Assembly (NCBI GenBank): GCA_945906765.1
Contig: CAMDRF010000001.1
Span: forward strand, 12,958 to 76,957
Length of the DNA stretch: 64,000 nt
DNA from: Nitrosovibrio sp. Nv4
Lineage (GTDB): Bacteria; Pseudomonadota; Gammaproteobacteria; Burkholderiales; SG8-39
Direction: 5' to 3'
The notes under the pieces were generated by a model that worked only from the letters and a program-made list of their open reading frames with translations, was not told the DNA's origin and made no database searches. Shown in pieces: positions 5,720-16,775 of the stretch. Both the position numbers and the translations under genes were made by a program. Numbering within the stretch: the first letter of the stretch is position 1; each line of letters opens with the position of its first letter.

Positions 5720-5749
5720 ATTATAAGGGATTTCATGCGGTCAGGTCAA
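5720..5749 (-). promoter_or_regulatory. sigma-70-type promoter for rplU-rpmA
   Basis: The minus strand reads TTGACC-18 nt-TATAAT (-35 at 5749-5744, -10 at 5725-5720), about 40 nt upstream of the rplU ATG. Confidence 0.5.
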
Positions 5750-14919: not shown

Positions 14920-15174
14920 ATGACGAATCACCGAGTGACCGCATGCAAGGCCGAGGACGACTACAAACTGTGGATCCGTTTCGACGACGGGCTGGAGGGT
15001 AGCGTGTTCCTTGGCAACCTGCTCGAAATCGGCGCCTTCAAGCTGTGGCGCGACGTGCGGGAGTTCGAGAAGGTGAGCGTGGACCCGGAGTCCGCCACCG
15101 TGACCTGGGGGGGCGGCATCCGTCTCGACCCGGAAATCCTGTATCAGGATCTTGCCGCGCGAGGCAGCCGGTGA
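14920..15174 (+). CDS. DUF2442 domain-containing protein (solo)
   Basis: 84 aa: ...YKLWIRFDDGLEGSVFLGNLLEIGAFKLWRDVREFEKVSVDPESATVTWGGGIRLDPEILY fits the DUF2442 pattern. No DUF4160 partner is nearby. Confidence 0.7.
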   Translation: MTNHRVTACKAEDDYKLWIRFDDGLEGSVFLGNLLEIGAFKLWRDVREFEKVSVDPESATVTWGGGIRLDPEILYQDLAARGSR

Positions 15175-15279
15175 GGAAAACCAAGAATTCAATGCGCCCG
15201 GCGATCCTCGCCAGGCGTTTGAATAGTCCGGGCCAGTGTGGCCGGGCTTTCTTTCGCAACTACCTCTAAGGAGATTGAT

Positions 15280-15570
15280 ATGGCGAAGAAAAAAGCAAAA
15301 AAAGGCGGCAAGAAAAAGAAGAAGAAAGCATCAGGTAAAAAGAAATCGTCCAAGAAGAAAGCATCAAGAAGGGTAACGGGCAAAAAAAAGAAAGCCGCGA
15401 AAAAGAAGGCTAAAAAGAAAAAGAAAGCGGCAAGCAAACCCGTAAGTCCCAAGGCCAGCACTGCGATGACGGCAAGCGTAAGAATGCCGTCCGCCGCGAT
15501 GGGCTCCGGCGCGAGAACCGCGCTGAATCCAGCGGCCGCGTGGCCGTTTCCGACCGGATCCCGGCCGTAA
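15280..15570 (+). CDS. lysine-rich, histone H1-like small basic protein (candidate nucleoid-associated protein)
   Basis: MAKKKAKKGGKKKKKKASGKKKSSKKKASRRVTGKKKKAAKKKAKKKKKAASKP... ending ...LNPAAAWPFPTGSRP. A strong SD (AAGGAG) lies 7 nt before the ATG. The ORF-track start at 15238 is unlikely. Confidence 0.55.
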   Translation: MAKKKAKKGGKKKKKKASGKKKSSKKKASRRVTGKKKKAAKKKAKKKKKAASKPVSPKASTAMTASVRMPSAAMGSGARTALNPAAAWPFPTGSRP

Positions 15571-15590
15571 CCGGGAACCGATCGGGAATG

Positions 15591-15616
15591 CGGCGGGGGG
15601 CGAAAGCCCTCCGCCG
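15591..15616 (+). terminator. GC-rich stem-loop with GNRA loop after the lysine-rich ORF
   Basis: CGGCGGGGGGC-GAAA-GCCCTCCGCCG forms an 11-bp stem (one G-T pair) with a GAAA tetraloop. Only CCTTTG follows, so termination efficiency is uncertain. Confidence 0.45.
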
Positions 15617-15759
15617 GCCTTTGAAGATCTCCGGACCGCCTTTGCCCTCCAGCTCCACTGGCAGGCTTGGGTCGGTCCGCGAGACTTTGTTTAGGGTGCA
15701 ACCCAGCGGAGGCCGCGATTCTATCCCCCCTCAAGCACGCACCAGTTCCCTTTGATTTT

Positions 15760-15780
15760 CCTTGTCGAAACAAGGGTTTT
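15760..15780 (+). terminator. small terminator-like hairpin
   Basis: CCTTG-tcgaaa-CAAGG followed by GTTTT. The stem is short. Confidence 0.35.
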
Positions 15781-15820
15781 GCGGCGCACAATTTTTTGCA
15801 TTCAAAAGATGGAGAAGTTA

Positions 15821-15850
15821 TTGACATAAAAGAGAGTTTTAAGATATGAT
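15821..15850 (+). promoter_or_regulatory. near-consensus sigma-70 promoter
   Basis: TTGACA (15821-15826)-18 nt-TATGAT (15845-15850), in a local AT-rich stretch. Confidence 0.6.
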
Positions 15851-15856
15851 GCATTA

Positions 15857-16082
15857 TGTTGCGTCGCAACAATCGCCGCTGAAACCGGGAGCTTCTTCCC
15901 GACTCAAGCAGCGCCATTCCGGGACCACCGAATCCTCCCGGGGTGTGCGTAAACCGAGTGTCCAGGTTGTTCCAGGACGCCCGGGAATCAACCCCAATCT
16001 CAGATCGTCTGGCGCCTCACCGAGGCGCTTGCGGCTGATTGGGGAGGGCGGCAACCCGGCGCAGAAGGTATGGAGGTTGAAA
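15857..16082 (+). promoter_or_regulatory. structured leader of about 225 nt (or independent ncRNA) upstream of the SLT gene
   Basis: Four CCGGGA/CCCGGG motifs (about 15885, 15919, 15938, 15980). Nested helix CCCCAATC (15992-15999)/GATTGGGG (16037-16044) encloses the hairpin GCGCCTC-acc-GAGGCGC (16012-16028). An SD GGAGG lies at 16073. Confidence 0.4.
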
Positions 16083-16775
16083 ATGGAAACAACCGAACTC
16101 ACGATGAAGTTCTCCGGTCTGGCCGGCGCCCTGCGCCTGTTTTCCGCGGCGCGTGCGCTGCTGGCGCTGGTCGGCCTGGCGGTGATCCTTGCCGCCACCC
16201 TGCCAGCGCCGCGCGAAGCGCTGCTGCGCCAGTTCGCCGCCTGGACCGAGGCCTGGGACGGCGAGAGCGGCAATGTCACCGCGGGCACCATCCAGCCGGG
16301 CGCGCTTAGCGCGGCGGCGCGCGAACAACGCGCCGTCACCGAGTTCATCGCCAAGCGCTACCGGGTGGCGCAGGACGCGACCGCCGGATTCGTCGCCAGC
16401 GCCTACCGCGCCGGCAATGAGTGGCAGGTCGATCCGCTGCTGATCCTGGCGGTGATGGCGGTGGAATCGCGCTACAACCCGGTCGCCGAAAGCAACATGG
16501 GCGCCAAGGGCCTGATGCAGGTGATCCCGAAGTACCACCCCGAGAAGCTTGCCGGGCATGGCGGCGAGAGCGCGCTGCTCGACCCGCACGTCAACATCCA
16601 GGTCGGCGCGCAGATCCTGCGCGAGTACCTGCGCCGCTTCGGCGAGACCGAGACCGCGCTGCAGATGTACGCCGGCGCCTTCGACGAGCCGAGTTCGTCC
16701 TATGCTTTCAAGGTGCTTGCCGAGCGCTCGCGCCTGGAGCAGATGCTCAAGCAAGTCCGCCGGACCGCGGCCTGA
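16083..16775 (+). CDS. lytic transglycosylase (SLT domain) with an N-terminal membrane anchor
   Basis: METTELTMKFSGLAG..., a TM helix, and the SLT motif AVESRYNPVAESNMGAKGLMQV. GGAGG lies 6 nt before ATG 16083. The ORF-track start at 15846 is rejected. Confidence 0.8.
   Translation: METTELTMKFSGLAGALRLFSAARALLALVGLAVILAATLPAPREALLRQFAAWTEAWDGESGNVTAGTIQPGALSAAAREQRAVTEFIAKRYRVAQDATAGFVASAYRAGNEWQVDPLLILAVMAVESRYNPVAESNMGAKGLMQVIPKYHPEKLAGHGGESALLDPHVNIQVGAQILREYLRRFGETETALQMYAGAFDEPSSSYAFKVLAERSRLEQMLKQVRRTAA

Follow-up and report, generated by a model that had tools for sequence, protein, structure and literature searches.

What lies between a strong promoter and a downstream gene when the first credible start codon is some 225 nt away and the intervening stretch is itself an open reading frame in phase with that gene? 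The question is raised by a locus in a 3.1-Mb metagenome-assembled Burkholderiales genome, which we analyzed within a window of 64,000 nucleotides, i.e. the whole stretch of DNA from whose first letter all positions below are counted. The gene encodes a lytic transglycosylase with an SLT domain. Lytic transglycosylases cut the cell wall and therefore need tight control, and to our knowledge almost nothing is known about their regulation in Betaproteobacteria. A preliminary description of the locus had proposed that a near-consensus promoter drives a structured RNA, which was taken to be a riboswitch, an attenuator or an independent sRNA, and had set aside the in-frame N-terminal extension of the SLT protein as low-complexity and devoid of a Shine-Dalgarno sequence. 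The reading that we favor, at about even odds (a probability of roughly 0.5), is instead that the stretch has a dual use and is not a riboswitch: the promoter would give rise to a 230-aa enzyme, and a transcript from farther upstream to a 309-aa form of the same protein.

The comparison on which this reading is based covers about 150 orthologous loci of uncultured Burkholderiales, with one set of 12 loci from the same genus and another of 80 loci from one genome per species. In order to remove selection bias, metagenome contigs were also scanned with the pattern of the promoter and its adjoining palindrome alone, which yielded 74 distinct loci, 53 of them with enough downstream sequence for analysis. 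All compared sequences are from uncultured organisms. The arrangement is present in a single copy per genome and is always found at the SLT gene.

The SLT gene and its neighborhood

The short form of the SLT protein (16083-16775, plus strand; 230 aa) has an N-terminal membrane anchor and an SLT domain that matches Pfam PF01464 with E = 9.8e-18 and 64.3 bits, compared to a cut-off of 21.3. The NCBIfam models for Slt, MltC, and EmtA match solely residues 183-301, which correspond to the SLT domain. The translation contains AVES...GAKGLMQ and thus both the Glu-Ser pair and the GLMQ motif of the family, to which we presumptively assign the roles that they have in family 1 enzymes. The stretch under study lies between this gene and the gene of a histone H1-like protein rich in lysine (15280-15570, plus strand; 96 aa), which is matched by NCBIfam NF038053 with E = 1.7e-13, under the curated cut-off of that model. 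Farther upstream, the same strand carries nrdA, nrdB, and a short gene of the DUF2442 family, and the order nrdB, DUF2442, H1-like, SLT is kept in most related loci, down to ~52% identity of the SLT protein. The DUF2442 gene (14920-15174; 84 aa; Pfam E = 2.9e-9), located between nrdB and the H1-like gene, is 80-96% identical at the nucleotide level across the genus, and its product has weak similarity to the model of the antitoxin DhiA.

Several hairpins bear on where transcripts might end in this neighborhood. Just 5' of AAGGAGA, the strong ribosome-binding site that precedes the H1-like gene, a terminator-like hairpin (15231-15260; GGCCAGTGTGGCC followed by GGGCTTTCTT) suggests that the nrdAB-DUF2442 transcript ends there. 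After the H1-like gene comes a long GC-rich hairpin (15623-15692, plus strand) with a consensus structure that includes compensatory pairs. It is a weak terminator candidate with a poor U-tract, which reads UUUGUUU here and CUUCCUU in relatives, and the terminator scan made no call at this position. The surrounding region (15506-15700), which runs from the 3'-terminal part of the H1-like gene into the DNA downstream, is 87-98% identical across the genus and hence better conserved than the end of nrdB. It folds into several hairpins, one of which has GNRA loops (GAAA, GCAA, and GUAA) and compensatory changes in its stem, with a consensus energy of -74.7 kcal/mol over 59 pairs. A search of this region against Rfam gives no match above chance; it is possibly a complex terminator or an RNA element of the 3' UTR.

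The promoter

The promoter consists of a -35 hexamer, TTGACA (15821-15826, plus strand), and a -10 hexamer, TATGAT (15845-15850, plus strand), separated by 18 nt. It had been described as a near-consensus element and the best match in the window, and the scan of both strands bears this out with one amendment: it scores 11 of 12 against the sigma-70 consensus and is joint best. The sole other site with this score is TTGACC-18-TATAAT at 5749 on the minus strand, and none is better. Across ~70 distinct orthologous loci, down to ~52% protein identity, TTGAC is invariant, and the spacer measures 17-19 nt, its length being kept and its sequence being free. The second hexamer occurs in relatives as TATCAT, TACCAT, TAAGAT, TAACAT, TAGGAT, or TATAAT, always with A in the second position and T in the sixth. 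Because it always has the form TAnnnT with a variable middle, it reads as a -10 element. Judged by this pattern of conservation, TTGACA-18-TATGAT is a genuine sigma-70 promoter, with a predicted transcription start at G15858. The same hexamer also has a second role to play, in that its bases 2-4 form the ATG at 15846 that opens the long reading frame.

We also considered other sources of transcripts in this region. There is no conserved sigma-70 promoter in 15700-15820. Candidates for a sigma-54 promoter or a second sigma-70 promoter in 15760-15820 were rejected on account of unfit spacing and a T6 that is not conserved. A leaderless mRNA starting from A15846 was likewise discarded, as positions -12 to -7 relative to it neither resemble a -10 hexamer nor are conserved.

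A palindrome at the predicted start site and its upstream copy

At the predicted start site lies a palindrome, GTTGCGTCGCAAC (15858-15870, plus strand; HP1/O2). In nearly all lineages, the form GYTGC-N3-GCARC is found 6-8 nt past the -10 hexamer. Relative to the SLT gene, it is found in each of the three frames, and the constraint is therefore on nucleotides rather than on a peptide. The outer Y..R pair is often C..A. We looked for RNA covariation in this palindrome and found none, C..A mismatches being frequent. A long-range pairing between the palindrome and the region before the Shine-Dalgarno sequence was also considered; it looks plausible in two lineages but does not hold in general (mean z = -0.75).

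A copy of the palindrome (O1; TTGCGGCGCAC, 15779-15789, strand not assigned) is centered at 15784, which places it 80 bp from the center of the start-site copy at 15864. Such copies, of the form T[TC]GC-N3-GCA, are found 78-80 bp upstream of the start-site palindrome in 20 of 51 distinct lineages, and in one more at 91 bp. O1 is located upstream of the -35 hexamer, and it can therefore not act as RNA made from this promoter. Since the upstream copy is untranscribed from this promoter, we read the pair as operators for a DNA-binding protein, which is the most likely interpretation of the conserved arrangement. The combination of promoter and palindrome occurs once in the 3.1-Mb genome. A search for a wider regulon recovered nine TTGCGnCGCAA sites in the genome, none of the others being located behind a promoter of this type.

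Two further features were noted around these sites. A conserved palindrome at 15766-15781 (CGAAAC-AAGG-GTTTTG here and CGAAAC-N4-5-GTTTCG in relatives) abuts the upstream TTGC-N3-GCA copy and could be a further protein-binding site. Moreover, when an ATG is missing from the -10 hexamer, the three loop bases of the start-site palindrome and the G that follows them often make up a start codon, ATG, GTG, or TTG (lineages L058, L064, L065, L087, L071, L072, L074, L081, L063, and L073). This codon is situated only 6 nt from the predicted 5' end and would open a nearly leaderless ORF.

An in-frame extension of the SLT protein

From the ATG in the -10 hexamer, 79 codons (15846-16082, plus strand) run in phase into the SLT gene, making up a whole ORF of 15846-16775. 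The extension contains 10 Arg, 5 Lys, 11 Ser, and 8 Pro residues and no hydrophobic segment, from which a basic cytoplasmic tail is predicted. The preliminary description had recorded this extension as low-complexity and devoid of a Shine-Dalgarno sequence, and its dismissal of the segment is at odds with a strong constraint on the frame. Among genome loci with an ATG in the -10 hexamer, the SLT frame is free of stops in 34 of 35, with stop totals of 1, 48, and 30 by frame, whereas loci lacking this ATG show no such bias (37, 49, and 40 stops). Among the metagenome loci, the frame of the -10 ATG runs into the SLT protein in all 53 cases, through extensions of 24 distinct lengths ranging from 17 to 83 aa, and the stops by frame number 0, 101, and 37. 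In the alignment of the genus, every indel is a multiple of three.

The pattern of substitutions is codon-like chiefly towards the end of the extension. Over the whole extension, the synonymous fraction is 0.227 in frame 0, as opposed to 0.14 and 0.12 in the other frames, and the BLOSUM score is likewise highest in frame 0. For the last 22 codons, the frame 0 values rise to 0.369 with a mean BLOSUM62 score of 1.57, compared to 0.14/0.16 and 0.13/0.06 (synonymous fraction/BLOSUM62) in the other two frames. Third-position variation is visible in the alignment of the last ~20 codons (RRLRLIGEGGNPAQKVWRLK, 16023-16082, plus strand). The signal weakens towards the middle part and disappears over the first 30 nt, which hold the palindrome. 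A motif, LxG[LV][IVL]xxL[SA]RxLP, is common to the extensions of other lineages. Codon-position asymmetry is weak in the middle of the extension, with pairwise differences of 1799/1679/2266 by codon position as opposed to 3235/2639/6693 in the body of the enzyme, and GC3 is 0.74 in the extension vs 0.91 in the enzyme body. Since both the codon-position asymmetry and GC3 are weak, the peptide is only loosely constrained. Taken as evidence from alignments, these observations indicate that the extension is under strong reading-frame constraint, and they argue for translation from 15846 on comparative grounds.

How ribosomes would start at this codon is less obvious. ATG 15846 is preceded at 9 nt by AAGAGAG, which is not a good Shine-Dalgarno sequence, and nothing comparable is found in other lineages. 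Two substitutes were tried and rejected: no alternative in-frame start is conserved in 15858-16020, and the TTG/CTG at codon 62 that is chosen by some gene callers cannot account for a frame constraint that extends over the preceding 150 nt.

A reading frame that is kept open with little regard for its peptide might also be expected if the leader were translated purely as a regulatory device, so that the act of translation would matter and the peptide would not. Ribosomes would then open the fold of the leader, prevent Rho termination, or reach the SLT start, and the in-frame fusion of the ORF to SLT would be incidental in most lineages. This agrees with an extension that is nearly unconstrained as a peptide and yet strictly stop-free and in frame, and with the coexistence of RNA structure and ORF in the same sequence. 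It agrees also with three lineages (L049, L062, and L057) in which the out-of-frame ORF ends at or near the SLT start. Such cases are few, however, and both the protein-level motif in several lineages and the conserved last 22 codons suggest that the product matters. The explanation moreover faces the same start-codon problem as the two-form reading, and on balance we consider it unlikely. The three exceptional lineages deserve mention in their own right: their ORFs, which begin in the promoter or the palindrome out of frame with SLT, end with an ATGA overlap at the SLT start (L049), within the Shine-Dalgarno sequence (L062), and 13 nt upstream (L057), which looks like translational coupling rather than fusion. 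In the window itself, the ORF is not a leader-peptide uORF but is fused in frame to SLT, separate uORFs being found in few lineages.

The internal start

The first credible start codon had been placed at ATG 16083, with a GGAGG 6 nt upstream. The GGAGG is indeed present (16072-16076; the whole site spans 16072-16085, plus strand) and is conserved. In nearly every lineage, a site of this type occupies positions -11 to -7 relative to the internal ATG, with 6-7 nt between the two. The peptide encoded across the Shine-Dalgarno sequence varies (WRL, ARRY, GRT, GRL, or RRW), and its Arg codon is always AGG, which is otherwise rare. By this comparison, ATG 16083 is a conserved and real start. Gene callers split three ways over the locus, with predictions of ~231, 248-256, and 305-316 aa. 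On comparative grounds, the 230-aa and 309-aa starts are both under selection, and nothing supports the intermediate calls.

The leader RNA

The RNA that would run from the predicted transcription start to the internal ATG is rich in potential structure. The 234-nt leader folds at -103.3 kcal/mol with z = -3.24 relative to dinucleotide shuffles, none of the 200 shuffles being as stable, and CCGGG/CCCGG words occur 7 times, compared to the 1.15 expected from the window average. The small hairpin, the CCGGGA/CCCGGG repeats, the CCGGGA...TCCCGG stem, and the nested element at 15992-16044 had all been pointed out before, and all are present; CCGGGA occurs at 15885, 15919, and 15981, CCCGGG at 15937 and 15980, and TCCCGG at 15936. 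The three structural elements named at the time all turn out to be part of a fold that is conserved in the genus with compensatory changes.

RNAalifold finds little structure when applied to the plain alignment, and species folded singly give the same series of hairpins in the same places from differing sequences. In these per-species folds, HP2 (15878-15909, plus strand) holds the CCGGGA at 15885; throughout the genus, each species has a hairpin at this site, built from differing sequences and with changes on both sides in 5 of 7 pairs. HP3 (15911-15950, plus strand) combines an outer GCGCC/GUGCG stem with an inner CCGGGA/UCCCGG stem (15919/15936) and has 70-77% of its alignment cells paired, with some compensatory pairs. 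HP4 (15958-15980, plus strand) shows changes on both sides in 8 of 9 pairs, a count taken from a 45-sequence alignment that was fitted to the model. The last element is a long helix (15992-16044, plus strand) between a C-rich strand, CCCCAAUC, and a G-rich strand, GAUUGGGG, which encloses GGCGCCUC-ACC-GAGGCGC. Within it, CCCCAATC (15992) pairs with GATTGGGG (16037) around the inner GGCGCCTC/GAGGCGC hairpin (16011/16022), and the same architecture recurs in the per-species folds.

Pair counts were made on MAFFT alignments, which are not fitted to structure. For the hairpin structure tested, 78.7% of cells are paired, compared to 35-45% when the partners are slid by 1-3 columns, with 14 double-change pairs against 4-10 for slid partners. 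For the 3' helix, the corresponding figures are 71.3% against 37-54%, and 9 double-change pairs against 2-6. In both cases, the covariation score was reached by none of 500 shuffles. An alignment of 45 sequences, which was fitted to a covariance model, has a covariation score of 0.208, that of the controls being at most 0.116. Controls derived from a structure are known to favor the structure under test. Minimum free energy z-scores are negative in 15 of 15 species of the genus, with a mean of -1.18 for the 31 leaders tested as against -0.09 for coding-sequence controls. The structure is confined to close relatives: leaders range in length from 36 to 330 nt across lineages and are not alignable between them, and the genus covariance model scores 95-114 bits within the genus and at most 37 bits elsewhere. 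The comparative alignment of upstream regions of SLT orthologs that the preliminary description had called for thus uncovers compensatory changes within the genus and no such fold beyond it. On the strength of these alignments, the leader RNA is structured and conserved with compensatory changes within one genus.

Covariation in excess of the controls also bears on the possibility that the locus makes a single long protein from ATG 15846. The promoter match would then be unused or minor, the hairpins would be incidental to GC-rich coding sequence, and the AT-rich block would serve as an unstructured landing site for ribosomes. The very strong frame constraint is what such a gene would show, many gene callers predict 305-316 aa, and one lineage (L069) has a 16-aa extension with no Shine-Dalgarno sequence before its internal Met. 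Against this, TAnnnT is kept even in lineages with no ATG in the hexamer, where the start codon is found elsewhere (in the spacer, at the edge of the hexamer, or in the palindrome loop), the -35 sequence and the spacer length are invariant, and the internal Shine-Dalgarno sequence with its rare AGG codon is kept in all peptide contexts. Together with the covariation, this makes a single long protein quite improbable.

The proposed identity of the RNA as a riboswitch, an attenuator, or an independent sRNA fares less well than its structure. A covariance-model scan against Rfam 15, which had been suggested as a check and which included the ydaO and GEMM-I families, gave no match in 15800-16100, whether gathering thresholds or lax filters with E<=10 were applied; the earlier statement that the RNA could be matched to no known class therefore stands. 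The terminator scan found no intrinsic terminator between 15858 and 16082. As the leader has no terminator, attenuation and an independent sRNA are unlikely, and because an aptamer would be expected to persist across lineages whereas this fold is confined to a genus, we set the riboswitch reading aside. We conclude that the leader is not a classical riboswitch, attenuator, or sRNA. The broader notion of a purely non-coding cis-regulatory leader (a riboswitch, a thermosensor, or a protein-binding RNA) with the open frame as a by-product is highly improbable: it would account for the conserved promoter, the long leader, the fold with its compensatory changes, the strong downstream Shine-Dalgarno sequence, and a composition nearer to intergenic than to coding DNA, but 53 of 53 in-frame ORFs of 24 lengths with zero stops cannot be a by-product, the substitutions are codon-like, and a fold that lacks an Rfam match and a terminator and is not conserved beyond the genus is unlike an aptamer.

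As to what the fold does, our preferred guess is that it protects and stabilizes the long untranslated 5' end rather than sensing a ligand. Another feature of the 3' helix may be noted here. Its G-rich strand GGGGAGGG (16037-16047) holds a second GGAGG (16043), 29 nt 5' of the true Shine-Dalgarno sequence (16072-16076), and either GGAGG, at 16043 or at 16072, is in principle a possible pairing partner for the conserved C-rich strand (15992-15999).

A model with two forms of the enzyme

The two-form reading draws on the conservation of the promoter and of the internal Shine-Dalgarno sequence, the frame and stop constraint, the codon-like substitutions, and the RNA covariation. We propose that the sigma-70 promoter directs synthesis of an mRNA that starts at G15858 and carries a folded, untranslated leader of 225 nt, and that this mRNA is translated from GGAGG-N6-ATG 16083 to give the 230-aa enzyme. 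The palindrome at the start site and its copy 80 bp upstream would act as an operator pair for a DNA-binding regulator of this promoter. Since the ATG in the -10 hexamer is absent from the promoter's own transcript, the long form needs an upstream promoter or read-through. We suggest that transcripts from farther upstream, probably arising by read-through from the H1-like gene past the hairpin at 15623-15692, cover ATG 15846. On these transcripts, the same 225 nt would be translated, yielding the 309-aa form with its 79-residue, basic, Ser/Pro/Arg-rich cytoplasmic tail. Transcription starts within coding regions, like alternative initiation of translation, are a recognized source of N-terminal proteoforms in bacteria, as reviewed in PMC13515050.

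A more far-reaching version of this model can be put forward only tentatively, and we hold it to be somewhat doubtful. It would have three conserved codes overlap in the stretch, namely the -10 hexamer with the start codon, the leader with the coding segment, and the palindrome with the first hairpin and codons 5-9. The choice of transcription start would add a basic cytoplasmic tail to the cell-wall-cleaving enzyme or leave it off. The leader, found in uncultured soil Burkholderiales, would be a novel regulatory RNA, in which the C-rich strand could pair either with the ribosome-binding-site mimic in GGGGAGGG or with the true GGAGG.

If the two-form reading is true, the locus is a widely conserved case of promoter choice setting two N-terminal forms of a cell-wall enzyme, and a rare documented instance of RNA-structure covariation inside a translated segment. 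There is also a practical consequence for the annotation of SLT gene starts.

Comparison with known systems

The arrangement is unusual but not categorically new, as its parts have counterparts in several known systems. Riboswitches of the ydaO family, which respond to cyclic-di-AMP and are represented in Rfam, lie upstream of rpf-type genes. Like these leaders, the present one is long and structured and lies between a strong promoter and the gene of a peptidoglycan-cleaving enzyme. Unlike them, it has no covariance-model match, no terminator, and no aptamer core shared across lineages, and it is an ORF as well as a leader.

The palindromes invite comparison with the lac operon, where the main operator O1 is located at +11 and the auxiliary operator O3 at -82. 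Here, the same palindrome is found at +7 and at about -74, with a spacing that is constant across many lineages. The present pair differs from the lac operators in that the upstream copy is recognizable in 21 of 51 lineages and in that the genome has no second such site.

For the proposed pair of proteins, a precedent is E. coli PBP1b, a membrane-anchored cell-wall enzyme whose alpha and gamma forms are made from one mRNA and have cytoplasmic tails of different length. In both cases, in-frame alternative starts would lead to a long and a short form. In contrast to PBP1b, the two starts at the SLT locus are separated by a conserved promoter, and the intervening sequence carries a conserved RNA fold.

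A further precedent is petH of Synechocystis, which reportedly gives rise to two isoforms of ferredoxin:NADP oxidoreductase (FNR) from two mRNAs with different 5' ends. In petH, the choice of start depends on the leader and its structure, and the isoforms differ by an N-terminal segment. The SLT locus is unlike petH in that the start codon of the proposed long form falls within the -10 hexamer of the downstream promoter, and in that it concerns a periplasmic cell-wall enzyme with a predicted cytoplasmic tail. Like petH, it would nevertheless be a single gene with two in-frame starts and two transcription starts.
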